DNA of 64,000 nt from a virus. Lineage: Duplodnaviria; Caudoviricetes. The stretch lies in the IMG/VR virus record IMGVR_UViG_3300025674_000014. One strand, given 5' to 3'. Each line of letters opens with the position of its first letter. Positions within the stretch are counted from its first letter, which is position 1. Positions 24,516 to 45,626 of this stretch are shown here, piece after piece. The notes below the pieces were generated by a model that saw nothing but the letters and a program-made list of their open reading frames with translations, did no database searches and was not told the DNA's origin. The translations under genes were made by a program, and so were the position numbers.

Positions 24516-26686
24516 TATTGTCTGGCTCTAGTAAATAAAGTTAATCTTGCTCCCCAATAAGAAGATTGGTTAGCTGTATCTGAGTAGAAAATTAATTCTG
24601 AACAATAACTAAATGTTATACCTATCTCATTATTATTAACAATTATATACCTAACATTAGGTATTAATCTGTAATTATCAGGTGTTAATAAAAAGTTATC
24701 TTTAGTAATTGTACCTTCAATATAATCTGTATTATATAAAATATTACCTGTATTGTTAAAATTAGGTACATACAAATCACTTGAATTTAAATCAAACGTG
24801 GGTGTTTTATAGTCAGACGATAAACCGTCTATACCCCAAATGTTATAATTGGTACCAGCAGAGTCTAATGAATTATCTTCCTTATCAATATCTAACAATG
24901 TAGCACTTAATGATGAGCCTGTACTAACTAAAAGTTGTAATGCTTGATATATATTAGAAGATATACCTTTTCTATAATCTGTATTAGGGTTACTAGATAG
25001 CTGTTTATTTTCTACAAATGGTATACCTAACCAACTTGATTGGCCATCAGGAGCTGATTCACCTTGAGTCTGCCCAGTATTGGCATCACTGTTAAAGAAA
25101 AATGCTCTAAAGTAAGTATTAGCAAAATCATTTACGACACCACCTGGATTAGATGTAGATCTTAAATTAAGAAGGTTACTTGTTGTATTATTTTTATTAA
25201 ATCCAAATCTAGCATTATTAATTAATACATTTACTGCAGCTGATGCGCTATCAGCTTGAACCCAATTTGATTCAAATACAAATTTGTAAGTAGCATTTGC
25301 TTCAGTAACAAAAGGAGATGATACAGCTTTGGTTGGTGATTGAGTTTGGGTTGGGGTTCTTGTATTGGTAGGAGTTTGTGTTTGAGTAGGTGTATTAGAT
25401 CTAGTTTGAGTAGATGTTCTGGTTTGGGTAGGTGTTTGTGTTCTAGTAGCAAATTGTGTAGCAGTTCTAGATTGAGTACTTGTTCTAGTTTGGGTAGCTG
25501 TATTGGTTCTAGTCTTACTAGGGGTTGCAAATTGTGTATAAGTTTGTGTAGGGGTTTTAGTTCTTGTATTTGTTCTAGATTGAGTAGGCGTTGATGTGTG
25601 ATTACGAGTTAAAGATACCGTAATTGTATTGGTCAATGTAGGGGTTAAAGTAGTTGTTGGTGTTAACCCTCTTGTAGCAGTGGGTGTAGGTGTAAAAGGA
25701 TTTTCATAACCAATACCATTAACTGAAAAATTATAAATGTGAAAAGCTGAAGTATCAACTCCTGTAGCATAAGACAACCCTACTTTAGTTTTACCAGATA
25801 ATGGCATTTCTAAGTTAAGATTATTATATTCATAAACTTTAATAAAGTTAGAATAAGCATCGTTTCTTAGATATACAATAACCTTCTTTCCGTAATTGGT
25901 AATTCTTACTTTAAATGCTTTACGAATAGGATTAATTGCAAAATTAGTAGGTGTGTTTGTAGGGGTAGATGTTTTAGTTTGAGATAAAGTGGGTGAAATT
26001 GTTCTTGTTGGTGTAGGTGTTACTACTGAACAAGCTTGACTTGTATTAGATGGGGTAAATGTTTGGGTAGGTGTTCTTGTTTGAGTGTTGGTTCTAGATT
26101 GAGTTTTAGTTCTAGTTACTGTATTTGTTTGTGTAGACGTTAAAGTTGAATTTATCGTGTTGGTAAAAGTTTTGGTAGGTGTTATTGTAGGTGTTTTAGT
26201 TTGAGTTGCGGTAACTGAAGGGTATTTGTAACCAATAGTTTCATACAAATCTAAACCAAAATTGATCAAATTAACACTAGTGTCAATATAATCAAAGTTT
26301 TTATTACCGCTATTACCATATCTTAATCCAATTGAATTAGGTCTTGTGTCAACTGTACCTGAAGTATATTGACCTCCTAATGGTCTAGAAAAATCCCCTA
26401 CATGATCAAAAGCTACCCCAAGTAAAGATTGATCAGTACCAAGAAATATATCATTACCTTCATACTCAATTAAACCTTCAGTGGGTGCAAAACCTAACCC
26501 CGAACCAGGGCTACCAACATTACCAGATGAATTAGCATCTAATAAGAAAACACAAAAGCCTTCACCTCCATTGACTAAACTACCAAAGAAAGAAAACTCA
26601 CCAGATATAATAATATCTTTAGTAAGATCTAGTACATCTTCTAAGATTATATTATTTGCTTTAACTGTGTTAATTGTTGAAGGCAT
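24515..26686 (-). CDS. Putative receptor-binding protein: L-type lectin domain plus Thr-rich repeats
   Basis: GGEGFCVFL, GSGLGF, LGVAFD and KVGLSYATG...HIYNFS legume-lectin motifs. Confidence 0.7.
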   Translation of the reverse strand: MPSTINTVKANNIILEDVLDLTKDIIISGEFSFFGSLVNGGEGFCVFLLDANSSGNVGSPGSGLGFAPTEGLIEYEGNDIFLGTDQSLLGVAFDHVGDFSRPLGGQYTSGTVDTRPNSIGLRYGNSGNKNFDYIDTSVNLINFGLDLYETIGYKYPSVTATQTKTPTITPTKTFTNTINSTLTSTQTNTVTRTKTQSRTNTQTRTPTQTFTPSNTSQACSVVTPTPTRTISPTLSQTKTSTPTNTPTNFAINPIRKAFKVRITNYGKKVIVYLRNDAYSNFIKVYEYNNLNLEMPLSGKTKVGLSYATGVDTSAFHIYNFSVNGIGYENPFTPTPTATRGLTPTTTLTPTLTNTITVSLTRNHTSTPTQSRTNTRTKTPTQTYTQFATPSKTRTNTATQTRTSTQSRTATQFATRTQTPTQTRTSTQTRSNTPTQTQTPTNTRTPTQTQSPTKAVSSPFVTEANATYKFVFESNWVQADSASAAVNVLINNARFGFNKNNTTSNLLNLRSTSNPGGVVNDFANTYFRAFFFNSDANTGQTQGESAPDGQSSWLGIPFVENKQLSSNPNTDYRKGISSNIYQALQLLVSTGSSLSATLLDIDKEDNSLDSAGTNYNIWGIDGLSSDYKTPTFDLNSSDLYVPNFNNTGNILYNTDYIEGTITKDNFLLTPDNYRLIPNVRYIIVNNNEIGITFSYCSELIFYSDTANQSSYWGARLTLFTRARQ

Positions 26687-26695
26687 TATATATAT

Positions 26696-29600
26696 TTACT
26701 GTTGTTCTCCTAATTTCAAAACACCTTCACTTTCAAGCCATACACTTTGCTGGGTGCCGTCTAAGTAATTATAGTCAATAAAACTAGCTGTTAGAGGGTT
26801 GGAATAATTTTCATTTCTTATTCTAGAATTTTGGAAGTATATTTCATTATCTACATTTTCAAACTTGCCGTTAATAAACTTATAATTCTGGTAATAGAAC
26901 GCAATACTATCTGATAAATCAACACTCTTTATAACATAGCTATATGTATTGGTTTCTGAATCATAAGTTAAAACAGGTCTATCTACTTCATAAACATTAT
27001 AATATGGATCTGAAGCATCTACTATACTGCTGTTGATATTATTAATAGATCTAAAACTATAAGCAGATAACTCTCTATATATTAATGAGTTAGTAGACTT
27101 AGGAAATATTTGCCTTAAATTAAGACTATCTAATTCCATTTTATAAATTGTAGGATAAAGATATTTGTAATTGGTAGCAGATAATGCAGAATGAATTGAT
27201 GTTTTATGAAATAATATAGTGTTTGATTTTTCATGGTAATAAAAATTACCAAATTTTTCTATATGAGTATTACCAGAAGTTATTCTACTAATATAATTTA
27301 ATGAGCTGTTAAATGCTAGAACCTTACCTGTGCTATAATCATAATCTATCTTCTCAATAACCTGGTAGTTAGGAGTTTCAATTACACAAACATCAAATAC
27401 AACATCAAGTTTAATAATGTTATTATTAAGCTCATTATATATTTCAGACTTAGCTGAATATTTAACAAATATTGCACTAAGTGAAGCAGATAATGGTGTT
27501 ACATTATTGTTTAAATCTCTAAAGTATGAATAAGATGATAACTGATACTTTTTATCATAAATGGATTTATTAGAAGTAGCATCTTCATTTACATATTGGG
27601 TAGATAAACCTTCTAAAATAGTACCGTAATGTTTTATTTTATCGAAACGTTTTAATTCTACATTAGATAAGTTGAAAGGGTCTAATTGATTTACATACTC
27701 AAATCTTCCACAATCTATAACAGAACTTAAAGACCTTAAAAATGTAGCTGTTCTTACAAAGTTAGGTCTGTTACCATTTATATCACTAGCACCATCAACT
27801 AACTTATTATAATAAACAGTTTGAATATTTTGATTCCAAGAAGGTGAATCACTGCTAGGTGAATCAGGTAACAATACATTATTAAAAGTAGAATAAAATA
27901 CACCATCGTAAGTATTACCTCTATTATAAAAAATAGACGAGGTAAAACACCAAGGCATATCAAAGCTACCGTTATATAATCTACTAGAGGTTTCAGTAGT
28001 AAATTCTAAATCTCCCAATGAACATAAACTTGTAGTAAATGATTGACTAGGTAATATATCGTAAATAAACTCACCATAATCCCCATCAATAGCAGATGTA
28101 TAATTAAATGGTTCATTGTTTATAAAAAACAAACCATTACTTAAAAATAAACACCTTTGGGTTATATTATTATAGGTAGATGATACACTATTAAATAAAG
28201 ATTTAGTTGAACTTTTTAGCAAGCCGATACTATTTCCATAGATATCGCTTGAGTTAAATACTAAACTATTATTACCAACTAATAATGAATTTTGTCTTTC
28301 ATCAATAGGGTAAAGAGCTTTATTATTGATATTATAGATATCGTTATTGCTCCATATATCACCCTTACCTTTGAAGAAATCTACTTTATCATAATTTCTA
28401 GATACACCAGAAGAATAAATTTGATTTTTTTCTTCTACATTTTCATAACCATGAAAATTAAGATAAAATGAATTATCATTTATATAACCAAAAGCTGCAG
28501 AGTTACTTACATCATAGTTAACAATATAAGCATTTTCATTTACATCAAATATTTCAAAAGTAGATTTAGTGTATTTAGAATTACCATATGTACCTATATA
28601 TTTTGTAGGGTCTGGAAAATAGTAAATAGTGTTACCAGATAAAGCTTGATAATTTATATTATAATTAAATTTAAAAACATTATAAACTAAAGTGCCTAAA
28701 TTAGATGGTTTATAAAAACCACCTATATCTTTTTCTCTTACTAAGAAAGCAGTGTTAGGTAAAGTAGCAGTACTAACATTGTTTCTGTTAAGATAATTTT
28801 GAGATATATTTTTAGCTTCTAATAATTTACCAGATAAAGCTTCAGAAGTATTTTCACCTGCAGTTAAATAATACCAATCTGTACCAATAAACTTTTCAAA
28901 TAAAGCTTTCTTATTTTGTAAGTTTAAATTATCGGTATTACCATCATTTAATTGATTAATAAAATCTTTATTTTTAAGATAATCAACATCAGTTGAATTT
29001 AATGATACTGGGAATGAAAGATTAGATATAAAATCTTCTAAAATATAATTGTAAGATGATAATGTTCTTACTATTGAGTTATCATAATTGATAAACAAAT
29101 CTGGATCCCAGGGATTAGTATTGCTATTCCATTGATCGTTTCTTTCTTTACCTCCATACTCATATCCCGAAGCAGGTACTGATGCAGTTAAATCAAAGTA
29201 ATCATCATAATTATCATAAAGTTCATCTATTACATAGTTAACATTACTAAGTACAAAATTCTTATTTGCTCCAAAACGATGAGCTAAAGAGATAGTATCT
29301 GAATTATAATTTAACAGATCACTTATTAGTTTAGTTAAGAAAGAAGTAATACCTATATTAGAAGAGAATATATTATTACGTCTCGGTTGCGTCTTTACTG
29401 TCTCTCTAAAGTTTTTATAATAACTAGTAAGTGACTTTATTTTCGATGCAACTAAGGGAACGATAGTATCTAATTGTTCGCTATCTTTATAATCGATAGA
29501 TCTTAGAAATTTTCTTTCCTGCTCAGTAAATACATCTAATGAAATTTGCTCTACTAATGATATATACTGCTGTTTAACATCGTTGTTTTGATTTATTAAA

Positions 29601-29812
29601 AAAGTATTTTTAACTACATTCCACGAAGTTAAATATTTTTGATAGGAATTTTTAAAAGTTTCAATTGAAACCGAGTTGTTTTTAAAGTAAGAAAGCCAGG
29701 ATTTAAAATCTAGAGGATTATTATAATCTACAGCATCGGATAAATTACCTAAAACGGTAATTGATCTTTCGATTTTATAATCACTAAATCTATCTATAGT
29801 GTTAACTGGCAT
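26696..29812 (-). CDS. Large putative baseplate wedge protein (gp7-like position)
   Basis: 1038 aa, downstream of gp6, own late motif; family not recognised directly. Confidence 0.5.
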   Translation of the reverse strand: MPVNTIDRFSDYKIERSITVLGNLSDAVDYNNPLDFKSWLSYFKNNSVSIETFKNSYQKYLTSWNVVKNTFLINQNNDVKQQYISLVEQISLDVFTEQERKFLRSIDYKDSEQLDTIVPLVASKIKSLTSYYKNFRETVKTQPRRNNIFSSNIGITSFLTKLISDLLNYNSDTISLAHRFGANKNFVLSNVNYVIDELYDNYDDYFDLTASVPASGYEYGGKERNDQWNSNTNPWDPDLFINYDNSIVRTLSSYNYILEDFISNLSFPVSLNSTDVDYLKNKDFINQLNDGNTDNLNLQNKKALFEKFIGTDWYYLTAGENTSEALSGKLLEAKNISQNYLNRNNVSTATLPNTAFLVREKDIGGFYKPSNLGTLVYNVFKFNYNINYQALSGNTIYYFPDPTKYIGTYGNSKYTKSTFEIFDVNENAYIVNYDVSNSAAFGYINDNSFYLNFHGYENVEEKNQIYSSGVSRNYDKVDFFKGKGDIWSNNDIYNINNKALYPIDERQNSLLVGNNSLVFNSSDIYGNSIGLLKSSTKSLFNSVSSTYNNITQRCLFLSNGLFFINNEPFNYTSAIDGDYGEFIYDILPSQSFTTSLCSLGDLEFTTETSSRLYNGSFDMPWCFTSSIFYNRGNTYDGVFYSTFNNVLLPDSPSSDSPSWNQNIQTVYYNKLVDGASDINGNRPNFVRTATFLRSLSSVIDCGRFEYVNQLDPFNLSNVELKRFDKIKHYGTILEGLSTQYVNEDATSNKSIYDKKYQLSSYSYFRDLNNNVTPLSASLSAIFVKYSAKSEIYNELNNNIIKLDVVFDVCVIETPNYQVIEKIDYDYSTGKVLAFNSSLNYISRITSGNTHIEKFGNFYYHEKSNTILFHKTSIHSALSATNYKYLYPTIYKMELDSLNLRQIFPKSTNSLIYRELSAYSFRSINNINSSIVDASDPYYNVYEVDRPVLTYDSETNTYSYVIKSVDLSDSIAFYYQNYKFINGKFENVDNEIYFQNSRIRNENYSNPLTASFIDYNYLDGTQQSVWLESEGVLKLGEQQ

Positions 29813-29829
29813 TGATAATATTTAATAAG

Positions 29830-32133
29830 TTAGCTAGCTGATAACAATTCAAGACCTATGCTTAATTGATAATTTAAGTTCTGTTCTATAACACCAGCAT
29901 AACTATCCCAATTTTTTAAGGGGGACGTATCAATATTGTAATTGCTCATATAAGATGGTAAGTAAGCAGATAATGTATTTTCGCCTTCTAAATCAATAGT
30001 AGTTTGATAAACATCATCCCAGTTAATAATATTATTTGTCCAATCACCAGGTACAACTGGTACAAATCTGTAAAATTTATAGTAAGAAGATAGTTCGTAA
30101 ACAAAATTACTTTGATCGTAAAAATCATTAGGTAATACTAATCCCCATCCCCAATCTTTACTAAACGAACTTAACGCATAACTACTAGTAGGAATAGTAT
30201 TAACATTAGTTCTAAGTAATGTGTATCTTTCTGAAAATGTTTCATACCCTACAATATAATCTTCATTCTTATAAATAATGCCATCCAATATATCTAATCT
30301 ATCACCAAGATTGTTGCCATATATTTTTCCATCTCTATAATTTTTAGCTGCTGTATGGGTATCATTTGGTTTATCAGCTAAGTTATACTTATCATGAAAG
30401 TTTAGTTGATATTGACTTCTTTTTCCGAATAATAAAGATTTTTTAATAGAAAATATATTAACTAATCTGCTTAAATCAGCAGGGTAGTTAATTAATAAGT
30501 TAGAAGAAGCAAAATCATCTAAGTCAACATTATACTCTAAAGCATAACCATATAAATTTCTTATGTCACACGTATCAATGTTTACATTATTTTGAATAAA
30601 ATTAGAAGTCTTTTCGTATATTCTTTTTCCAATAGCATTAGTTTCAGAACTTAAAGTACCTAATATAGTTCCAAAGAATGAATCAAATATTTGAGGTCTT
30701 TTATATATTGAAGGCTGAAATGCTAAATCCTTCATGTAAGTAGACATATCAAAATTTTCATTTATCTTAGCTACTTTATTAACACCTGATGAAGGATATA
30801 AATGAAATGCATCACTTGTACCAGATAACTCAAAACTATCAGTATACATATAAGCTGATAATCTAAACATTTGATTTGTGTTATCAAAGTCTGTATTGTT
30901 CCAAAGTTTATAAGCACTAGTAGGAAAAACAAAACTACCTTTTACCCAACCCAATCTGTATTTTTTAAACAACTCAGTATCGAAACTTATGTAATCTGTA
31001 AGTTCAGATACTAAAGTTAACTTATCAGCAGTTACTAACTTTAGTTGTACAGCATTTTCTGCAAAATCAAAATTATAATTAAAATTAGTAGGTAGTGTTT
31101 TACTATCATACCAATTATTAAACTTTGTTTTAGCAACAAAACTAATTTGTTGATCTAAAAATTTACTAGGGTTAATATTAAAAGTGTTTATCTTTTTACC
31201 TTCACCATCTATACCGTTAGAAGAAATATGTATAAGGTCAGGTTGTTTATATATATTTTCAAATACACTATATTTTGCAGTATCACTATTTTTTACTGGT
31301 AAATCTGAATCATATTTTAAGTTATAGTATTTGGTATAATTATCAGGAAAATTAGATGTGTCTACTGTAGCTAAAAGATGGTATGTAGAATTGTTTACCG
31401 TATCGTCAACAAAGTAAAAGTCAGCTGATCCACTTGTACCTACAAAAAATGCTCCTTTGTCAGATGAAGAAGTAGGTTCAACTAAAGTACTTTGATTAAG
31501 TCTACCATATAAATTAGTATCAATTGTATTTACCTTATTAACAATAGTGTCACTAAAAACAGACCCTGTTTCTAAAGTAACATCTTCTCTTTCAAAAAAT
31601 CTATGAGTTGGTAATAAATGAGAGTAAGGTTCTTTTTCTAACTTAGTAATATCATAATATAAAGAATTACTACCACTTGCATTTAAAAAGAATGAATATT
31701 TGTTACCGTAAGTTTGTAAACTGTTATATCTTTCTAATGTTAATTGAGGTGATGCATTACCTGCAGTAAGAAAAAGATATAAAGAATTTAAACCGCTAAG
31801 AGGTTTAAATCTAAAACTATTGCTTACAAAGTCTAATATTTGAATATCTTTTCTATATGAATCTAAAACTGTATTACCTGATGATAACATTAACGTCATA
31901 GTAACGCTATATGTACCAGGGTAATAAAAATAATGTTCAGCTGAAAAAGCGTTTACTTTTGTTGAACCATCGCCAAAGTCCCATAAAATATACTTGTTAC
32001 TGAAATCAGATGTTTCATAATTCCCAGGAACAAATCTAACGGGTGTTTGAGGTAAAGCGTAAGAAGATAAAGACTCAACGTCAAAGACGTTATAACTTTT
32101 AAAATTCCAATATCCTGTGTTATAATTTGGCAT
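29830..32133 (-). CDS. Putative baseplate wedge protein with an N-terminal PKD domain
   Basis: WDFGDGS...HYFYYPGTYSVTMT PKD motif; directly downstream of gp6. Confidence 0.6.
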   Translation of the reverse strand: MPNYNTGYWNFKSYNVFDVESLSSYALPQTPVRFVPGNYETSDFSNKYILWDFGDGSTKVNAFSAEHYFYYPGTYSVTMTLMLSSGNTVLDSYRKDIQILDFVSNSFRFKPLSGLNSLYLFLTAGNASPQLTLERYNSLQTYGNKYSFFLNASGSNSLYYDITKLEKEPYSHLLPTHRFFEREDVTLETGSVFSDTIVNKVNTIDTNLYGRLNQSTLVEPTSSSDKGAFFVGTSGSADFYFVDDTVNNSTYHLLATVDTSNFPDNYTKYYNLKYDSDLPVKNSDTAKYSVFENIYKQPDLIHISSNGIDGEGKKINTFNINPSKFLDQQISFVAKTKFNNWYDSKTLPTNFNYNFDFAENAVQLKLVTADKLTLVSELTDYISFDTELFKKYRLGWVKGSFVFPTSAYKLWNNTDFDNTNQMFRLSAYMYTDSFELSGTSDAFHLYPSSGVNKVAKINENFDMSTYMKDLAFQPSIYKRPQIFDSFFGTILGTLSSETNAIGKRIYEKTSNFIQNNVNIDTCDIRNLYGYALEYNVDLDDFASSNLLINYPADLSRLVNIFSIKKSLLFGKRSQYQLNFHDKYNLADKPNDTHTAAKNYRDGKIYGNNLGDRLDILDGIIYKNEDYIVGYETFSERYTLLRTNVNTIPTSSYALSSFSKDWGWGLVLPNDFYDQSNFVYELSSYYKFYRFVPVVPGDWTNNIINWDDVYQTTIDLEGENTLSAYLPSYMSNYNIDTSPLKNWDSYAGVIEQNLNYQLSIGLELLSAS

Positions 32134-32134
32134 G

Positions 32135-33961
32135 TTAACCTTGTCTTATTACTTCAATTCTTTCCGATACTAAAGATAAATTTTTAAAATAAGGGAATTG
32201 AAAATATTTTAATCTTACATCTTGATCTGTAGTAGTAAAATCAGATGTTAGATAAACTGGATTATATAAAGCTAATTGTAATTGATTATTAATAATAGTG
32301 CTTCCTTTATAATTTCTTCTTGTTGAAAATTCAACAACCCCATCGACATCTAAAATTAATTGAGATAAATCTTTTAACGAAATAAGTTGACCTAAATCTA
32401 AATTATTGTTGTTAAAATAATCTAAGAATATAGAAGCTATTTCTTTTTGAACTGAACTCAAATCTCTTCTAGAATTTCTATCCACCTCAACATATAAGTA
32501 AGATTCATCTCCTGCAGCATCAATAAAGTTATAATCAGTTCCATTACTAGCTCCAAAATTTAATTCCATATAAACTGGATCTGAAACTACTAATTCAGTT
32601 GTAGCAGATTTAACATCGTTTAATAATATATTAATTGCATTCTTTTGAGCTATTGATAAGAAATTTGTTCTAATATCTAAACTTGTTTCTAAAATCTTAT
32701 TAGGTACTGCAAAAATGTATATATTATTAAAATCACAAGCATCAGAAAAATTAACCTGATTAAACAAAACTCTTGAATCATCATTAGGTCTATCTAATCC
32801 TATATCAAAAAAGTATTTCTGATAAATTGCAGTGTAGTCAAAATTGTTAACAACTGATGCTGATTTAACCCAGTTACCAAAATTCTTTAATATATAATTT
32901 CTATAATCATCTGTAGTAACTAACCTATATTGTGAGTTAAATAAGTTAGGGGCATTAATTTTTATTTCTTCAACACTCTCTTTAGTTTTAAACAATGTAG
33001 ATGCATTTGCATTAGTAAACGATACATTAGCAGCTTCAGCACTAGTTATAATGTTAGCACCGCTTGATGTGGTGTCGTTTAAGATTGCATTAAATTGTGT
33101 TGTGTTATAAAAGTATAACTGCTGATTATCTATTTGGTTTTTGCTGATCTGACCATTTTGACCATCAGACTTAAGATAATATATAGCAACTAGATCACCT
33201 TCGTTAAGTTTTTTACCATTAACATTATTACCAAACTTAATTTCATATTGTTCATTTTCATTAAAACGAACTGAATATTTTTTAGCTGAACCTGTTTCAA
33301 GGTATAATGATGATGATCTAGACCATTGCTCCCATTTAGGGTTTAAGACTCCACCTGGTAATACGTAAACATATATGTTATTATTATCTATATAAAAATT
33401 ATCTGTTGTATCGGTTGCAGCAAGAAATGCTACTTCATTTTCTTCACCTATTGCAGAAAATATAGGAAACTCAACAAACTGACCATTATATAAAAGATTG
33501 TTGTTTTGTAAGTCAATTAATGCTTCAACTCCATTTAATGTTTTCTGAAATGTAACATCTTGTACAAAACTATATGAAGTACCTGAAAAGGTAAAATAAC
33601 TAAATCTGGGTATTGTATAAGAGTTAATTGGTAAGTTAGCATTAGCTACTGCTTCGAAGTTAATATTTGCAGATTGCGGGCCTGTAGGGTTATAATCAAT
33701 GCTCTTTACTATTTGATTGATATTCTCGTAAAGCTCAGCCTGACTAAAATTACTCTCAGAAGAATTTTTATTCAAATAGTAAATTAAAACGTGATAAGAA
33801 TAAGCAACAATATCAATAATAGCTGATAGGTTACTACCTTCATAGTTTTGATCGGTAAAGACTTTCTGATCATTCATCTTTTCGATGATAAGATCTTTAA
33901 GACTAATAGCATCAAATGCTACATAACCGTCTTGTTTAAATTTATAATCGTTGTCAGGCAT
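32135..33961 (-). CDS. gp6: Baseplate wedge subunit, T4 gp6-like
   Basis: FTDQNYEGSNLSAIIDIVAY, YEIKFGNNVNGKKL, QYRLVTTDDY. Confidence 0.92.
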   Translation of the reverse strand: MPDNDYKFKQDGYVAFDAISLKDLIIEKMNDQKVFTDQNYEGSNLSAIIDIVAYSYHVLIYYLNKNSSESNFSQAELYENINQIVKSIDYNPTGPQSANINFEAVANANLPINSYTIPRFSYFTFSGTSYSFVQDVTFQKTLNGVEALIDLQNNNLLYNGQFVEFPIFSAIGEENEVAFLAATDTTDNFYIDNNNIYVYVLPGGVLNPKWEQWSRSSSLYLETGSAKKYSVRFNENEQYEIKFGNNVNGKKLNEGDLVAIYYLKSDGQNGQISKNQIDNQQLYFYNTTQFNAILNDTTSSGANIITSAEAANVSFTNANASTLFKTKESVEEIKINAPNLFNSQYRLVTTDDYRNYILKNFGNWVKSASVVNNFDYTAIYQKYFFDIGLDRPNDDSRVLFNQVNFSDACDFNNIYIFAVPNKILETSLDIRTNFLSIAQKNAINILLNDVKSATTELVVSDPVYMELNFGASNGTDYNFIDAAGDESYLYVEVDRNSRRDLSSVQKEIASIFLDYFNNNNLDLGQLISLKDLSQLILDVDGVVEFSTRRNYKGSTIINNQLQLALYNPVYLTSDFTTTDQDVRLKYFQFPYFKNLSLVSERIEVIRQG

Positions 33962-33963
33962 AG

Positions 33964-34452
33964 TTATTGATAAAATGTAACTCCTGTAGAGTTAAGTAAA
34001 GCTTTAAATTTTATAGTTGTATTATTATTTATGAATGGCACACCAAGTGACAGGTTGATTGTATATTGATTTTGTTCTGGTATAGCAGTAACCAACACTT
34101 CCTTTACAGTAATTCTAGGTTCTTGAAGATATAATTGATTTTTAATAGTATTACCTATATTAAGAGCTGTATCCTCTGAACAAGGTAAAAACAAAAATTG
34201 GTTTAAATTAAGACCAAATTGAGGGTTTAATATTTTATCTCCCGGAAAGGAAGTAAAGATATTAACAATACTGTTTTCAATAGCTCCTAAATCATAACTA
34301 CCTACAAGATCTACATCTTTAAGGTTAGAATATAACTCTGCTTGTTGGGTTTGATCCCATTCAAAATCTACTTTAACATCAGCATATGTAAACTGAGGTT
34401 TATCAGTAATATTTTTAGGTTTAGCTAAGTTATCAAGTACTATGTTAGCCAT
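33964..34452 (-). CDS. gp25: Baseplate wedge subunit, gp25-like
   Basis: AIENSIVNIFTSFPGDKILNPQFGLNL...EPRITV. Confidence 0.9.
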   Translation of the reverse strand: MANIVLDNLAKPKNITDKPQFTYADVKVDFEWDQTQQAELYSNLKDVDLVGSYDLGAIENSIVNIFTSFPGDKILNPQFGLNLNQFLFLPCSEDTALNIGNTIKNQLYLQEPRITVKEVLVTAIPEQNQYTINLSLGVPFINNNTTIKFKALLNSTGVTFYQ

Positions 34453-34457
34453 ATTAA

Positions 34458-34465
34458 TATTTATA
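34458..34465 (-). promoter_or_regulatory. T4-type late promoter TATAAATA (gp25 operon)
   Basis: Full T4 consensus 5 nt upstream of the gp25 ATG. Confidence 0.8.
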
Positions 34466-34503
34466 ACTACCTTTTAATTAGCTTCTGCAGCATAAATAAT
34501 ATT

Positions 34504-35130
34504 GTGGAAAAGAAATTCAATAAGATTTACGAATCTTACGTATCTAGATTTACCAGAGGTGGTTTTCTTACTGGAGATTTAGTTAAAGTAAGAGATAACT
34601 ACAAATCTACTGAAGGTTATAAACAATTAAGCCCAGAGTATCAGGCCAAGTTAGATGATCTTTTAGCTAGTGATCTTAACTTGCGTGTTTCTGGTATTGA
34701 GAACAAATACCCTTCTAACCAACCTGGTAACACAGATAACTCAAGCGGAGAGTTTTCTATCACTGTATCACAAGAAACAGCTCCTGGTAGGTATGATGGT
34801 TTTTATCAATTTCCTGATGACATCTTCGAACCAGTAGATGTATATCCTAACAGAATGCCAGTACCAGACAGTATGGTACGTCCTAACGGCACTAAAATTG
34901 ACCCAGATACATTAGAGTATGAAGATGAAGAATCTTATGTTGGGTCTAATCCTCTTAAGTCTCAGGTTGAAGCAGGTTATTTACCTGATGCTGAAAAACA
35001 ACCTGCTATGGGTGATGATAGAGAATTACATAATGTCAATGCTAAGACAGATCAGTTTGGTGCACCTTCTCATGATGCTCAAGCAATCGGAGGCGGTAAC
35101 ATGCCTGACACTAGCATTTACTTAAAGTAA
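34504..35130 (+). CDS. Hypothetical late protein, candidate internal head protein
   Basis: MEKKFNKIYES N-terminus; TAAATA-N5-GTG. Confidence 0.6.
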   Translation: MEKKFNKIYESYVSRFTRGGFLTGDLVKVRDNYKSTEGYKQLSPEYQAKLDDLLASDLNLRVSGIENKYPSNQPGNTDNSSGEFSITVSQETAPGRYDGFYQFPDDIFEPVDVYPNRMPVPDSMVRPNGTKIDPDTLEYEDEESYVGSNPLKSQVEAGYLPDAEKQPAMGDDRELHNVNAKTDQFGAPSHDAQAIGGGNMPDTSIYLK

Positions 35131-36028
35131 TAAAGCATGCATATGCATTGATTTCTTGATCCATACAAAACGCTGATTTATAGATAAAGTCGTGGCAAGT
35201 AGTAAGCTGCGACTTTTTCTTATCTTCTTGAATGCATGGCAAGTCATCGATGTAATTAAACATCTCTTTAATCAATACTGGGTAATCATTATTAAACACA
35301 TGCTCATTCTTTATCGCAAGCTTTCTGCACTTAAGAACATGTCCATGCTCAATAAGCTTATACAAATCAGCGACAAGTTTGGATACGTTAGAGCTATCAT
35401 CAACTTCAATCTTACCATCGTTTGTAAGCTTTTGAATCGTATTGATGGTCTTACGAAGATCTGGAAAGTTATCCCTAACAATTTGTTTCAAGTCATCTTC
35501 ACTACATACGATATTTTCCTCATTCAATATATGAGCCATGCGTCTGGTTACATCCTCCACGTCATGGGTTATGTTAAATACCTGGCACCTGCTCTGTAAT
35601 GCTGGAATGATTCGATGCTTATAATTTGCAGTAAGAACAAATCGAGTAATTGCACTATACTCTTCCATTACATTACGCAATGCTCTCTGACCATCTTGAG
35701 TCAAACCATCACACTCATCTAAGATAATAACTTTGATAGGAAAGAGACTCTTTGTCTTAGCATAGTTCGTAACCTTACTACGGATAGTATCAATACCATT
35801 CTCATCTGATGCATTGATATATAGGTGATCACATTCAATTAGTTCATTAACAATAATCTTTGCAAGAGTAGTCTTACCAATACCTGGACTACCTACAAGA
35901 AGTACATTTGGAATCTCTCCACTCTCTTTAGCTTTATCAATCAATTGCCTAATTGAATTGCCTTCTTTAAGACAATAATCAGCAATCTGCTTCGGGCGAT
36001 ATTTTTCTACTAATAAGTTATCGAACAT
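35111..36028 (-). CDS. gp44: Sliding-clamp loader AAA+ subunit (gp44/RFC-small-like), paralogue A
   Basis: VEKYRP, Walker A GSPGIGKT, Walker B ILDECD, LQSRC; TATCAT-N6-ATG. Confidence 0.93.
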   Translation of the reverse strand: MFDNLLVEKYRPKQIADYCLKEGNSIRQLIDKAKESGEIPNVLLVGSPGIGKTTLAKIIVNELIECDHLYINASDENGIDTIRSKVTNYAKTKSLFPIKVIILDECDGLTQDGQRALRNVMEEYSAITRFVLTANYKHRIIPALQSRCQVFNITHDVEDVTRRMAHILNEENIVCSEDDLKQIVRDNFPDLRKTINTIQKLTNDGKIEVDDSSNVSKLVADLYKLIEHGHVLKCRKLAIKNEHVFNNDYPVLIKEMFNYIDDLPCIQEDKKKSQLTTCHDFIYKSAFCMDQEINAYACFITLSKC

Positions 36029-36048
36029 ACAACGATGATATATACTAT

Positions 36049-36981
36049 CTATCGCTTTTCAAATAATTTTACCAACTCAAGACAGCAACAAAATGCATTT
36101 ATCTCTTTATCCAATACTTGTGTATTTTGATACAAATAATTAGAGATAGTTATTAGTAGATCTCTTTTGAATTTTTCTGGAAGGTCTTTCTCGTGCGTGT
36201 AATTAAAAAGAAGCTTAAGAAGAGAGTGATACTCACCGTTAAACTTCTCGTCATTATCCGTAAGAAATTGTCTAATGTTCTCAGAAACGCCAGATTCAAT
36301 TCGATCATAGAGGTCGTCAATAAACACCTGGTCTGTTTCCTCTTTGTCAATAGTGAGTCTTCCATTGACTGTATACTTTTGAATGTTGTTAACACATTTT
36401 CTAATATCAGGGTAATCCTTTTTTATCAACTTAATGAAGTAGTCCCTGTTCTCTTCAGTAAGTGTAATGTGTTCATAATTAAGAATAGCACTACATCGTT
36501 TAACGACTTCTAAAATAGGAGGAGTTAAGTCAAAGTTCTGACATCTGCTCTGCAATGCTGGAATGATCTTATGAATGTAATTACATGTTAGAATCCATCT
36601 AGTTGTTCTGCTATACTCTTCAATAGCATTACGTAGAGCTTTTTGAGACTCTTGCAAAAGACCATCACACTCATCTAAAATAATAACGTTAATCTTACCT
36701 TTAGATGGTCTTTCTTTTGCATATGATATAGCTTTCTTACGAATGGATTCTATATCGTTTTCATCTGATGCGTTTATATAAATGTAATCACATTTTATAA
36801 GATCTTTTACGATAATCTTTGCTAAAGAGGTTTTACCTATACCTGGGGGACCAGCAAAGAGAAGGTTTGGAATTTCTTCTTTTTCCTTAAATTGGTTAAA
36901 CACTCGATAATTGTCATCGGTTAAGATGATATCATCGAGTGTTTGTGGTCTATACTTTTCAACAAATAGACTATCGAACAT
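36049..36981 (-). CDS. gp44: Sliding-clamp loader AAA+ subunit (gp44/RFC-small-like), paralogue B
   Basis: VEKYRP, GPPGIGKT, ILDECD, LQSRC; start moved to ATG 36981, 5 nt after TAAATA. Confidence 0.93.
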   Translation of the reverse strand: MFDSLFVEKYRPQTLDDIILTDDNYRVFNQFKEKEEIPNLLFAGPPGIGKTSLAKIIVKDLIKCDYIYINASDENDIESIRKKAISYAKERPSKGKINVIILDECDGLLQESQKALRNAIEEYSRTTRWILTCNYIHKIIPALQSRCQNFDLTPPILEVVKRCSAILNYEHITLTEENRDYFIKLIKKDYPDIRKCVNNIQKYTVNGRLTIDKEETDQVFIDDLYDRIESGVSENIRQFLTDNDEKFNGEYHSLLKLLFNYTHEKDLPEKFKRDLLITISNYLYQNTQVLDKEINAFCCCLELVKLFEKR

Positions 36982-36985
36982 ATCA

Positions 36986-37489
36986 TTATTTACTATCAGA
37001 CGAGCCAAATCCATCAGCCCCTCTGTTAGTATCAGACACTTCGTCAGCCCATTCAATAATAGGTTGCAATAATCTATAGACAACTATTTGTGCACAACCT
37101 TTACCTTTTTCGATTACAGCGTCAGTATCGGAAAAGTTATACAACTTAACACCTAGATCACCCCTGTATTGATTATCAATAACACCAAGATGAGGTTGTA
37201 AGCCATGTTTGAAACCTAGACCAGATCGAGGTTCAATTCGAAACCAATAACCAGGAGTAATATCTGCAAGAGTAAGACCGACAGGCACAACTGCACTTCC
37301 ACGAGCTGGAATAGTCGTATCTTCTACAGCAAACAAATCATAACCAGAATCACCAGTCATACATTCTTCATTGTTTACTGTAGGTAGTTTTGCATCATCA
37401 TGCGTCTTCTTAAACTTAACAGTCAATGCTTGTTTATCTACATTAACCCAGTTTGTATTTGATTCATATACATCACACATATCGCTCAT
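36986..37489 (-). CDS. dut: Trimeric dUTPase
   Basis: DSGYDL, PRSGL, GVIDNQYRG, RGADGFGSS. Confidence 0.97.
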   Translation of the reverse strand: MSDMCDVYESNTNWVNVDKQALTVKFKKTHDDAKLPTVNNEECMTGDSGYDLFAVEDTTIPARGSAVVPVGLTLADITPGYWFRIEPRSGLGFKHGLQPHLGVIDNQYRGDLGVKLYNFSDTDAVIEKGKGCAQIVVYRLLQPIIEWADEVSDTNRGADGFGSSDSK

Positions 37490-37524
37490 ACAATCATAAT
37501 ATATGTTGTACTATAAAAGTAAAC

Positions 37525-37532
37525 TATAAATA
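37525..37532 (+). promoter_or_regulatory. T4-type late promoter TATAAATA
   Basis: Full consensus 7 nt upstream of ATG 37540. Confidence 0.8.
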
Positions 37533-37539
37533 TTTGGCA

Positions 37540-38016
37540 ATGGACGATATACCAAGTCATGATATAGGTGATTTAGTTGATCAGTTAAAGAATGCTGAAA
37601 AGTATCTTAAGAAACCAGAAAAGGCAGAAGAAGAGTTCAACTTAGATCCTGAAGAGCTTGAAAAGTTTATACTTAACAACGCTGGTAAGCTTGTAAAGAA
37701 ATCTATCGATATGGTAGATGAAGTAAAACAATATGTCGAAACTGCTCCAGAGAGTAGAGATGTATCTAGTTTATCTGAACTGATAAATGCTTCTTCTTCA
37801 GCTATAGAAACTCTTTCAAAAATATTAGTACAAAATAAGAAAGACAAAACTCAGAAAGAAGTTAAACAGATGGATATCGACGGCAAGAAGCAATTAATGC
37901 AAGGTGAGTTTAATGCAAAGGTTATGCTATCAAGAGATGATGTTATGAAAGAGTTATTTGCTAAAGTTGAAAGAGAAGAAAAAGATATTACACCGACACA
38001 GTCCCAAGAGTTGTAA
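37540..38016 (+). CDS. Putative terminase small subunit (gp16-like)
   Basis: Helical core VETAPESRDVSSLSELI...LSKI and C-terminal VMLSRDDVMKEL resemble T4 gp16; TATAAATA at 37525-37532; start moved to 37540. Confidence 0.5.
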   Translation: MDDIPSHDIGDLVDQLKNAEKYLKKPEKAEEEFNLDPEELEKFILNNAGKLVKKSIDMVDEVKQYVETAPESRDVSSLSELINASSSAIETLSKILVQNKKDKTQKEVKQMDIDGKKQLMQGEFNAKVMLSRDDVMKELFAKVEREEKDITPTQSQEL

Positions 38017-38881
38017 GACTGTTGGCTACATTTTTATAAAAACCGACTTCTTTCTTTAAGTAGTCGGTTTTCTTTTCCAACCCTTCTAAAGTAAACTCTA
38101 TTGCTCCTTTTTCCTTTAATTGTAAGTTATCTGTATCGTCTTGAGGGTCATACTGCTCGTAAAAAGTAATTATATCATACAAGCTTCCATAAAACTCAGT
38201 TAAGTCAGCTTCAAGCTCTTCTTTGGCTACATTATATATTCTTTCATAATGATAGTAATCGGCTACTAAGTTACTACCATGGGCTTCTTTACTATCTGAA
38301 AATGGTTCAGATAGTTGATACATATTATGTCTAAACAAACTAGTACAAAATCTTGACATATAACCTGTTAACAATTTAGTATTAGGTTTTAATTTATTCT
38401 CAATAGATGTAGCAAAGTTAACAGGTACTAACTGTTCAACTAAATCATCTGATACTAAATCAAAGTCAACATCATATATAGCTAATAAAGAGTCATCAGG
38501 TAAATATTCTACATTTCTTAATAAGCCAATACTATCAGAAATTTCTTTAAACACCTGAACTTTATCTTTTAGTACTTTGTTGAATCTTCTTTTTACAGGA
38601 GCTATTGAAGTTAAATACCTTTCATACCAAAATACTTTGTATTGTATTTCAGAATATTTTGATAAACCTCCTTTATCTAAATTAACAAATATTTCAGATT
38701 GGCTAGTAATAGGGTCTATACCTACTAATGACTTTCTCCATTCAATAAAATTATCTAATTGGTTAATTCCTTGAGCTAATAGTGCTCCAAAGTTAGTAGC
38801 TTTGTTGTATAAATCTTTTTCATAATAGACGTTTAAGTCATATAACTTTGGATCTATAGTTGTATAATATTTGTAGCTCAT
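37988..38881 (-). CDS. Hypothetical protein coupled to the baseplate hub gene
   Basis: 297-aa ORF, 4-nt overlap with the upstream gene. Confidence 0.65.
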   Translation of the reverse strand: MSYKYYTTIDPKLYDLNVYYEKDLYNKATNFGALLAQGINQLDNFIEWRKSLVGIDPITSQSEIFVNLDKGGLSKYSEIQYKVFWYERYLTSIAPVKRRFNKVLKDKVQVFKEISDSIGLLRNVEYLPDDSLLAIYDVDFDLVSDDLVEQLVPVNFATSIENKLKPNTKLLTGYMSRFCTSLFRHNMYQLSEPFSDSKEAHGSNLVADYYHYERIYNVAKEELEADLTEFYGSLYDIITFYEQYDPQDDTDNLQLKEKGAIEFTLEGLEKKTDYLKKEVGFYKNVANSLTTLGTVSV

Positions 38882-44933: not shown

Positions 44934-45626
44934 TTACTTACTATTTTTAGATTTCCATGCTTCTAACATTGCAAGAACCTCTAATTTGAGATAAGGTGTA
45001 TTATGTTTTACCCATGACTTTTCATCTCTATCATAATAGTAGCACGCTAACTCTCCTACCTTTTGACCTGAAAGACAAGATTGCATATATGCATATAAGC
45101 TTAATTGTAGAGCGTAAGTGCTAAATTCACAAGCTGGTAAATGAGATAAAGGGTCCAACATATAATCCCCATATTGATTAGTAAATGTAAACTTTTTATT
45201 AGTCTTAAAATCAAATAGGTTGAAATACTTTCCTTGCGTTTCATATACGTCGGTGGTACCTGCTATTTTGTATTCGTGTAGCCATAGTTTCTTTTCTGGT
45301 TCAATCTTTGATCTATCTGGTTGCCAAATACGTTCAATAGGGTCAGTGTAAAGTTGTTTTTCTTCAGAAGTGATATCTTTTTCATGAAGCCAATTTTCCA
45401 TAACAAGGTGAATAGATGAACCATAATCACATGCTTGTTTGTTTACAGTTTTCCATCTCTCTTTTATTTCATCTTGAGATACCCCTTCGCGGTCAGCTAC
45501 AATTTTAGACATCTTTTCAAGTTCAAAAGGTTTCTTGAACTTACCAATCAATGTAGTGGCACTTAAGTACTTTTCGTTAGTTACGGGGTTTTTATACGTA
45601 TGTGATGCTGGATCAAATTCTAACAT
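44934..45626 (-). CDS. PD-(D/E)XK exonuclease
   Basis: SATTLI, GSSIH, PEK, IAGTTD, FDFKT, YALQLSLY; TGtTATAAT-N6-ATG. Confidence 0.88.
   Translation of the reverse strand: MLEFDPASHTYKNPVTNEKYLSATTLIGKFKKPFELEKMSKIVADREGVSQDEIKERWKTVNKQACDYGSSIHLVMENWLHEKDITSEEKQLYTDPIERIWQPDRSKIEPEKKLWLHEYKIAGTTDVYETQGKYFNLFDFKTNKKFTFTNQYGDYMLDPLSHLPACEFSTYALQLSLYAYMQSCLSGQKVGELACYYYDRDEKSWVKHNTPYLKLEVLAMLEAWKSKNSK

Follow-up and report, generated by a model that had tools for sequence, protein, structure and literature searches.

Two diverged gp44-like clamp-loader genes with different promoter motifs are kept together in uncultured T4-like phages

Introduction

Why should a T4-like phage keep two different genes for the ATPase of its clamp loader? 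The question is raised by a stretch of viral DNA of 64 000 nucleotides (Duplodnaviria; Caudoviricetes; IMG/VR record IMGVR_UViG_3300025674_000014), here called the window, in which two gp44-like genes, A and B, lie in tandem. An original prediction, made from the sequence alone, had described them as intact clamp-loader ATPases under different promoter classes, had proposed either a heteromeric loader or separate loaders for replication and for late transcription, and had named a phylogeny of both copies and the location of gp62 and gp45 among the checks. The setting is a clade of uncultured aquatic T4-like phages with two intact, diverged gp44 copies. These are strictly co-inherited, evolve under purifying selection at unequal rates and carry conserved promoter motifs of different types.

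Clamp loaders are the textbook case of a homo-oligomeric ATPase ring that became a ring of specialised paralogues, from archaea to eukaryotes, and the T4 loader, with four identical gp44 subunits, is the chief structural and deep-mutagenesis model. The family is thoroughly known. The literature that we searched describes T4-like loaders as gp44(4):gp62(1), and in it we came across no T4-like phage with paired gp44 genes; we could not find a description of a fixed, ancient pair of diverged gp44 genes with different promoter classes, and the arrangement is apparently undescribed.

Two intact gp44-like ATPases in tandem

The two genes are the following:
35111–36028, minus strand: paralogue A, 305 amino acids (aa), gp44-like clamp-loader AAA+ ATPase, the faster-evolving copy
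36049–36981, minus strand: paralogue B, 310 aa, gp44-like clamp-loader AAA+ ATPase, the slower-evolving copy

Sequence comparison confirmed both as full-length gp44/RFC-small clamp-loader ATPases. The PHROG family phrog_168 ('clamp loader of DNA polymerase') is matched by A over residues 3–302 of 305 (E = 2.7e-74) and by B over residues 3–303 of 310 (E = 6e-68), and both genes match the Pfam families AAA, DNA_pol3_delta2 and Gp44_lid above the curated cut-offs. Their matches among PDB sequences include archaeal RFC-small (1.7e-38 for A, 1e-38 for B), T4 gp44 (3.9e-27 and 2.6e-27, respectively) and eukaryotic RFC2–5 structures. A and B are 47% identical to each other. There is no third gp44 copy within the window. 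For B, the mechanical open reading frame (ORF) reaches back to TTG 37083; we place the start at ATG 36981, which lies 4 nt past the stop of the upstream gene and yields the conserved N-terminus of B, MFDSLFVEKYRP. The presence of two intact gp44-like ATPases in tandem on the minus strand, as first predicted, is thus confirmed.

Catalytic residues were checked by aligning A and B with T4 gp44, using residue roles from the T4 deep-mutagenesis study (PMC8121543), and conservation was followed through 31 distinct A-type and 19 distinct B-type sequences. In T4 gp44, K56 belongs to Walker A, D107, E108 and D110 to the DExD motif, N139 is sensor 1, Q118 and R122 form the coupling junction and R151 is the arginine finger of the SRC motif (PMC8121543). 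The equivalents of all these residues are invariant in both clades. Walker A reads GSPGIGKTT in A and GPPGIGKTS in B, Walker B is DECD, and SRC is present in both (A146–148, B145–147); the coupling residues are Q114 and R118 in A, Q113 and R117 in B. The lid arginine of sensor 2 is likewise invariant (FPDLR192 in A and YPDIR194 in B, aligned to FPDFR in T4). The claim that both copies retain Walker A, Walker B and SRC was therefore correct, and it holds clade-wide. From family and motifs, a clamp-loading ATPase function is predicted for both proteins.

For A, AF2 gave a model (pLDDT 77.5) whose alignments to RFC small subunits and T4 gp44 cover 311–333 columns, with 8UH7_E, 3U61_B and 8UK9_C among its fold matches. 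The three-domain fold (AAA+, lid and collar) is given for A by this model and for B by sequence coverage only.

Distribution and synteny of the pair

Relatives were gathered by IMG/VR and metagenome scans, which gave 186 loci. Every B-type locus with at least 2.6 kb of downstream sequence has an A-type gene next, on the same strand, and every A-type locus with at least 1.7 kb of upstream sequence has B. The order B then A is found in every related contig with sufficient flanking DNA. There are 132 other relatives with a single gp44, counted within up to 10 kb on each side; in two of them, G004 (91% complete) and G005 (100% complete), the whole IMG/VR record contains one full-length gp44. Single-protein IMG/VR scans with P0013 and P0079 found almost nothing.

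Megablast against cultured phages revealed no near relative, and the best identity to a cultured-phage protein is below 40%. The cultured-phage collection has 2673 matching places in 2663 records, about 10 of which contain two places; nearly every cultured-phage record thus has a single matching place, and T4 and most of its known relatives seem to possess only one gp44.

The pair is bordered by two genes:
36986–37489, minus strand: dUTPase gene (Pfam dUTPase, E = 8.5e-25; phrog_135), directly upstream of B with a 4-nt gap
34504–35130, plus strand: orf208, 208 aa, convergent on A, its last 20 nt overlapping the end of A; downstream edge of the locus

In single-copy relatives the gene order is orf187(-), dUTPase, gp44, orf208(-), gp25, gp6. 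In pair-bearing phages it is orf187(-), dUTPase, B, A, orf208(-), gp25, gp6, with an ornithine cyclodeaminase (OCD)/mu-crystallin gene before B in one subclade and a variable insert between B and A. The dUTPase gene is the ancestral upstream neighbour of gp44, as the dUTPase–gp44 synteny of single-copy relatives indicates, and the synteny shared by single-copy and pair-bearing phages places the origin of the second copy at the resident site.

The downstream neighbour orf208 has no Pfam or PHROG match, and its start carries a late-type motif. It was considered as a pair-specific partner or a stand-in for gp62 and was rejected, being equally common beside single-copy gp44: 90 of 132 single-copy loci and 22 of 24 pair loci have it between gp44 and gp25.

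The OCD gene (L037:9039–9995; Pfam E = 1.3e-63), a metabolic gene not usually expected in a phage replication-gene cluster, begins with GTG right after the dUTPase stop. It is also found in L035, L044 and others, a subclade in which B is about 80% identical.

Origin of the pair

In a quick LG+G4 tree, the A clade falls inside the single-copy sequences and B outside them on a long stem. Under a site-heterogeneous model the backbone of the tree collapses. Constraining A and B to be sisters improves the likelihood by 23.5 log units, and this arrangement is not rejected by the approximately unbiased (AU) test (p = 0.805). The stem lengths are about 0.40 for A and 0.85 for B. A single tandem duplication followed by quick divergence of both copies would be the simplest history and is allowed by the AU test. 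Horizontal acquisition of B, hinted at by the LG+G4 tree, is not claimed, since the backbone collapses and the AU test prefers sisters; it may have occurred, but is not needed. The phylogeny proposed as a check thus allows a sister relationship, but its backbone did not hold under the site-heterogeneous model. P0087 is a basal member of the A clade.

Selection and divergence

Rates were compared in 15 genomes carrying both genes (105 pairs). The protein distances of A and B rise closely together (r = 0.94), and the change in A is 2.0 times that in B. The Nei–Gojobori dN/dS, taken as the median of 28 unsaturated pairs, was 0.10 in A and 0.04 in B; these low values indicate purifying selection, and hence that both genes are functional. 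Divergence within the clade reaches 64% identity for A and 79% for B. To calibrate divergence we used gp6, a baseplate gene close by. Where gp6 identity was 0.6–0.7, identities of about 69% for A and 84% for B compare with about 74% for single-copy gp44, a reference of only 10 comparisons. This suggests a tighter constraint on B than on a gp44 that stands alone, and a slightly looser one on A.

The sites at which the copies differ from the rest of the family were sought among 127 positions that are at least 90% conserved in 102 single-copy sequences. The consensus is altered at 12 of these sites in A only, at 16 in B only and at 8 in both. Altered sites are concentrated between the NASDE motif and the Walker B strand (A67–99; 12 of 26 sites, p = 0.03). 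The four residues that follow SRC are all altered in A (4/4 sites, p = 0.006), the family sequence L-T-P-P having become I-(T/N)-H-D.

Being intact, selected, anciently co-inherited and conserved in its promoter classes, the pair represents neither a fresh, redundant duplication nor a gene in decay.

Promoter motifs and expected timing

The start signals of the locus are as follows:
36992–36987, minus strand: late-type motif TAAATA, 5 nt before the ATG of B, its last bases overlapping the dUTPase stop
36062–36057 (TTGAAA), 16 nt, 36040–36035 (TATCAT), minus strand: sigma-70-like promoter of A, 6 nt from the ATG of A
37496–37523, minus strand: sigma-70-like promoter of the dUTPase gene (TTTACT, 16 nt, TATTAT, 6 nt to ATG)

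The promoter of A agrees with the consensus at 10 of 12 positions and is the best sigma-70-like match in 33800–38200; its -35 element sits within the 3' end of B. The word TAAATA placed 5–7 nt before an ATG is found 32 times in the window against 10.3 expected, a number reached in none of 100 shuffles. In a simple gene set of 77 starts, 29 have the TAAATA motif, 14 a sigma-70-like pair and none both. The annotated genes with TAAATA are gp25, the baseplate hub, the tail sheath stabiliser, a holin-like gene and B; those with a sigma-70-like promoter are the dUTPase, a DnaB/RadA-like ATPase, an endonuclease and A. The annotated late-motif genes of the window are thus tail, baseplate or lysis genes, with B as the sole exception, and the annotated sigma-70-motif genes belong to DNA metabolism. 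An exonuclease gene (44934–45626) has TATAAT 6 nt before its ATG and no -35 element passing the filter; it was left out of the sigma-70-like class.

The difference between A and B is conserved, and this comparison across relatives is the strongest evidence on the promoters. TAAATA precedes B by 5–7 nt in 15 of 15 distinct upstream contexts, behind either dUTPase or OCD. A TTGnnn-N16-18-TAnnnT pair lies 4–11 nt before the ATG of A in 14 of 15 distinct contexts, including those with inserts between B and A, and TAAATA is absent before A in all 15. The start of single-copy gp44 abuts the dUTPase stop or has a sigma-70-like promoter, and the late pattern fits only 1 of 125. In T4, the region 26000–38000 (L026; genes 42, 43, regA, 62, 44, 45, 46 and 47) has no TATAAATA on either strand, with 1.8 expected. 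Judged from the contexts of the relatives and the absence of TATAAATA from this T4 region, a late-type motif in front of gp44 is a derived trait confined to B and a true difference from T4.

The motif might have been a by-product of the Lys-stop ending of dUTPase. This was rejected: single-copy phages have the same ending too, but with a spacing of 0–4 nt to the ATG, against 5–7 nt in pair-bearers. The by-product reading is also opposed by the occurrence of the 5–7 nt spacing behind two different upstream genes and by L034, in which the TAAATA of B is clear of the upstream stop codon that it overlaps in most contexts.

We regard TAAATA at B as a putative T4-type late promoter, its core being enriched, conserved and linked with structural genes. 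T4-type late promoters (gp55, TATAAATA), whose element ends about 6 nt ahead of the transcription start, share the TAAATA core, and the TAAATA-N5-7-ATG class is enriched at the structural-gene starts of the window; the full T4 octamer is absent at B, which has AGTAAATA. With the core 5 nt before the ATG, transcription would start at or beside the ATG.

In all cases B sits 4–6 nt behind an early-type operon (dUTPase, or dUTPase and OCD); the dUTPase gene of L037, for example, is preceded by an equivalent early-type promoter, TTGATT-N17-TATAAT-N6-ATG. No terminator-like site was found between 37489 and 35111. The early-type operon upstream and the lack of a terminator make it probable that B is transcribed early too, and its translation could be coupled to the upstream stop. 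In an L002-type lineage, with A and B 99% identical to those of the window, a 246-aa gene with TAAATA-N5 lies between the old promoter of A and A itself, and A is probably also transcribed late there. The most defensible timing, judged from these arrangements, would be early for A and early plus late for B, rather than two exclusive windows. The positions originally given, TAAATA 5 nt before B and TATCAT 6 nt before A, were confirmed and the motifs proved conserved in relatives. The idea of different promoter classes likewise stands as far as conservation goes (15/15 for B, 14/15 for A), but not as a simple split in timing, since transcription of the early operon probably continues into B.

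The junction between B and A is an insertion hot spot in relatives, with inserts of 0.26–2.5 kb and some genes on the opposite strand. Such insertions would explain why A needs its own promoter. The inserts are located as follows:
L002:1182–1965
L008:4065–6000
L031:2808–3617
L044:10925–13404
L011:1–1610
L056:639–1610
L073:489–1705

Among their products are a homing-endonuclease-like protein (GIY-YIG/HTH), an ankyrin-repeat protein of 510 aa and one with a pilin-like prokaryotic N-methylation motif; several other ORFs have no family match.

Partners of the clamp loader

A homologue of gp62 (phrog_225, about 136 aa) is present once each in the pair-bearing genomes G001, the nearest record, and G002, about 28–32 kb from the pair:
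G001, contig 1: 12699–13058 (locus L188): gp62 homologue matching positions 20–126 of the 160-position phrog_225 profile

No gp62 (phrog_225) was found in the 64-kb window; by its position in G001, it should lie just past the high end of the window. The gp62 homologue of this phage group is short and, in G001, lies about 28 kb from the gp44 genes, in contrast to the 45-44-62 cluster of T4 and HTVC008M. The profile of gp45 (phrog_223) gave no match at E <= 1, even in the near-complete single-copy relatives G004 and G005. These phages must therefore have either a highly diverged clamp or a different kind of clamp. Of the two partners to be located, gp62 was therefore found, in relatives, and gp45 was not matched by phrog_223.

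A possible mixed clamp loader and its alternatives

In the T4 loader, four identical gp44 subunits occupy positions B–E and gp62 occupies position A (PMC3331839, PMC8121543). The ATP sites at positions B, C and D are active and that at E is inactive, and the arginine fingers of C, D and E are used and that of B is not (PMC3331839, PMC8121543). The gp44 subunits at C and E bind the canonical cleft of the clamp, those at B and D the inter-subunit grooves (PMC3331839). A paralogue limited to position E could accordingly lose the catalytic Walker B residue, and one limited to position B the arginine finger. Neither loss is seen in either clade despite their long history, which implies that each paralogue holds at least one internal position or fills a four-position complex of its own. 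Three models remain: a mixed ring (X-Y-X-Y, or 3:1 with the minor subunit internal), two homo-tetramers, and free mixing. From sequence data, a heteromeric loader cannot be told apart from a pair of independent loaders.

We favour, tentatively and at a little less than an even chance, a mixed loader made of A, B and gp62. An ancestral single gp44 gene behind dUTPase would have duplicated in tandem; both copies would have diverged quickly and then been kept together as working AAA+ clamp-loader subunits. A and B would assemble with a single gp62-like subunit into one mixed pentamer that loads a gp45-type clamp. In an alternating ring (gp62, X, Y, X, Y), or if the minor subunit took an internal place, the paralogues could specialise with every catalytic motif still needed, and in the alternating ring each copy would specialise on one clamp surface. 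B would be expressed both from the early dUTPase promoter, through read-through, and from its own late-type TAAATA signal, and A from its own sigma-70-type early promoter; thanks to its extra late signal, B, as the subunit in heavier use, would be made in larger amounts or for longer. The mixed ring is favoured on account of the strict co-inheritance of the genes and the complementary changes at conserved non-catalytic sites. The constraint on B after duplication also speaks for it, as does the archaeal precedent of a (RFCS1)3(RFCS2)1(RFCL)1 loader with a long post-duplication branch (PMC2880001). The L002-type lineage, in which A and B would share transcription units, is counted on the same side.

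Several points weigh against the mixed loader. Distinct conserved promoter classes are unexpected for obligate partners, and genes on the opposite strand part B from A in several relatives. There is no relaxation of catalytic motifs in either paralogue clade (31 A, 19 B); with no position-specific loss, unlike RFC5, fixed positions are not demanded by the sequences. The two tests for enrichment of altered sites were made post hoc and give modest values (p = 0.03 and 0.006), and the placing of A67–99 in the clamp-touching helix and loop of clamp loaders is tentative. The AF2 model of B, built from six sequences, is too poor for use (pLDDT 50.2). Co-assembly, stoichiometry, subunit positions and real expression timing are all things that we infer.

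The same promoter data could be read as the mark of separate loaders: A4-gp62 early, for replication, and B4-gp62 mainly late, either loading gp45 for clamp-dependent late transcription or serving late recombination-dependent replication or packaging. This is a serious rival, chiefly on account of the strong conservation of both promoter classes, although we consider it somewhat unlikely. It is supported by the constancy of the motifs (TAAATA-N5-7-ATG at B in 15/15 contexts, sigma-70-type at A in 14/15 and never TAAATA), by the isolation of B among the annotated late-motif genes of the window, all others of which are tail, baseplate or lysis genes, and by the 12-kb T4 region of genes 42–47 without TATAAATA; every catalytic motif is kept in both copies, as a homo-tetramer needs, and several relatives have B and A uncoupled by intervening genes, part of which lie on the opposite strand. 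However, B lies 4–6 nt behind an early-type operon with no terminator and is probably early too, A follows a late-motif gene in the L002-type lineage, only one gp62 is found per relative and no second clamp is known. Nor is it obvious why an accessory late loader should be more constrained than single-copy gp44. In its strictest form, with B as the ATPase of a dedicated late-phase loader, A in the early replisome and the two machines separate in time, the proposal is clearly unlikely. If B were a late-phase loader, clamp loading would be tied to late gene expression in a way that is undescribed for T4.

Two further explanations would place less weight on clamp loading or on specialisation. One paralogue may have left classical clamp loading, as an unloader or remodeller, a loader of another ring (a host or second phage clamp) or a regulator. 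Both paralogues are indeed altered at sites nearly invariant in single-copy gp44s, eukaryotic RFC-like complexes load other clamps or unload PCNA, the fold search of the A model returned entries of Rad24-RFC, Ctf18-RFC, ATAD5-RFC and Elg1-RFC, and gp45 of the group has diverged too far to be matched by phrog_223, near-complete relatives included. We nevertheless consider this improbable: the alternative functions of eukaryotes come from a swapped large subunit at position A rather than a small subunit, both copies keep every ATPase and arginine-finger residue, and no second clamp or second gp62 was found, with the limit that phrog_223 misses gp45 even in near-complete G004 and G005. The copies may also be redundant or matter for dosage, with no division of labour and an incidental difference in promoters. 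All motifs are present in both, so that they could in principle replace each other, and one A gene (L028:1223–2137) has a lone in-frame stop (DGQ to DW*), which could mean that A is dispensable. This gene is otherwise 91% identical to A of the window, and its stop may be an assembly error, a population or rare variant, or an early sign of the loss of A. Redundancy is very improbable in view of the low identity of the copies (47%), which have been co-retained while A diverged to 64% and B to 79%, the strong purifying selection on both with a stable two-fold difference in rate, the changes that each has fixed at family-conserved sites and the conservation of the promoter types.

Comparison with known clamp loaders

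The T4 gp44(4):gp62(1) complex (PDB 3U5Z, 3U60, 3U61 and 8UH7) is built from a homologous gp44 (PDB E about 3e-27) with the same three-domain layout and shares the Walker A, DExD, Gln118, Arg122, sensor 1 and SRC residues with A and B. T4 has one gp44 gene beside gp45 and gp62, whereas here there are two diverged gp44 genes, one with a late-type motif.

The nearest parallel is archaeal. Methanosarcina acetivorans and its relatives have a three-subunit (RFCS1)3(RFCS2)1(RFCL)1 loader (PMC2880001, citing Chen et al. 2005 and 2009). RFCS1 and RFCS2 resemble A and B in deriving from one duplicated small-subunit gene and in being co-inherited, long-stemmed and stably retained (PMC2880001). The systems differ in that co-assembly is shown for the archaeal proteins and deduced here from genes alone, and in that RFCS2 let one subunit–subunit interface drift, whereas no catalytic motif is lost here (PMC2880001). 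A further difference is that B, which has the longer stem branch, has since evolved under the tighter constraint.

The likeness to eukaryotic RFC2–5 lies in the paralogous ATPase subunits, which the A model matches at a Foldseek E of about 1e-17. Eukaryotes have four distinct small subunits; the RFC2–5 paralogues hold fixed roles in the loader, and the subunit at position E is catalytically dead. The alternative complexes (Rad24/RAD17-, Ctf18- and Elg1/ATAD5-RFC) differ in the large subunit, not in the small ones. Two or more diverged, co-inherited small-subunit paralogues, as expected of a heteromeric RFC, are found in the phages. Position-specific relaxation of a motif or interface, of the kind seen in RFC5 and RFCS2, was not found for the catalytic motifs of A or B; among family-conserved sites, only non-catalytic ones differ.

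The pair may repeat in a virus the subunit specialisation of archaeal and eukaryotic clamp loaders. A T4-type system at the two-paralogue stage, with dozens of pairs spanning 64–100% identity, would permit direct tests of which positions specialise first and of whether the two gp44-bound clamp surfaces drive the split. The proteins are small, of soluble type and easily expressed, which makes the question experimentally tractable.

Other features near the locus

Upstream of the dUTPase gene, 37489–37540 contains back-to-back start signals about 50 bp apart, the sigma-70-like promoter of dUTPase being the one on the minus strand. On the plus strand, a 158-aa ORF (37540–38016) is preceded by TAAATA-N7-ATG and overlaps the end of a minus-strand gene (37988–38881).

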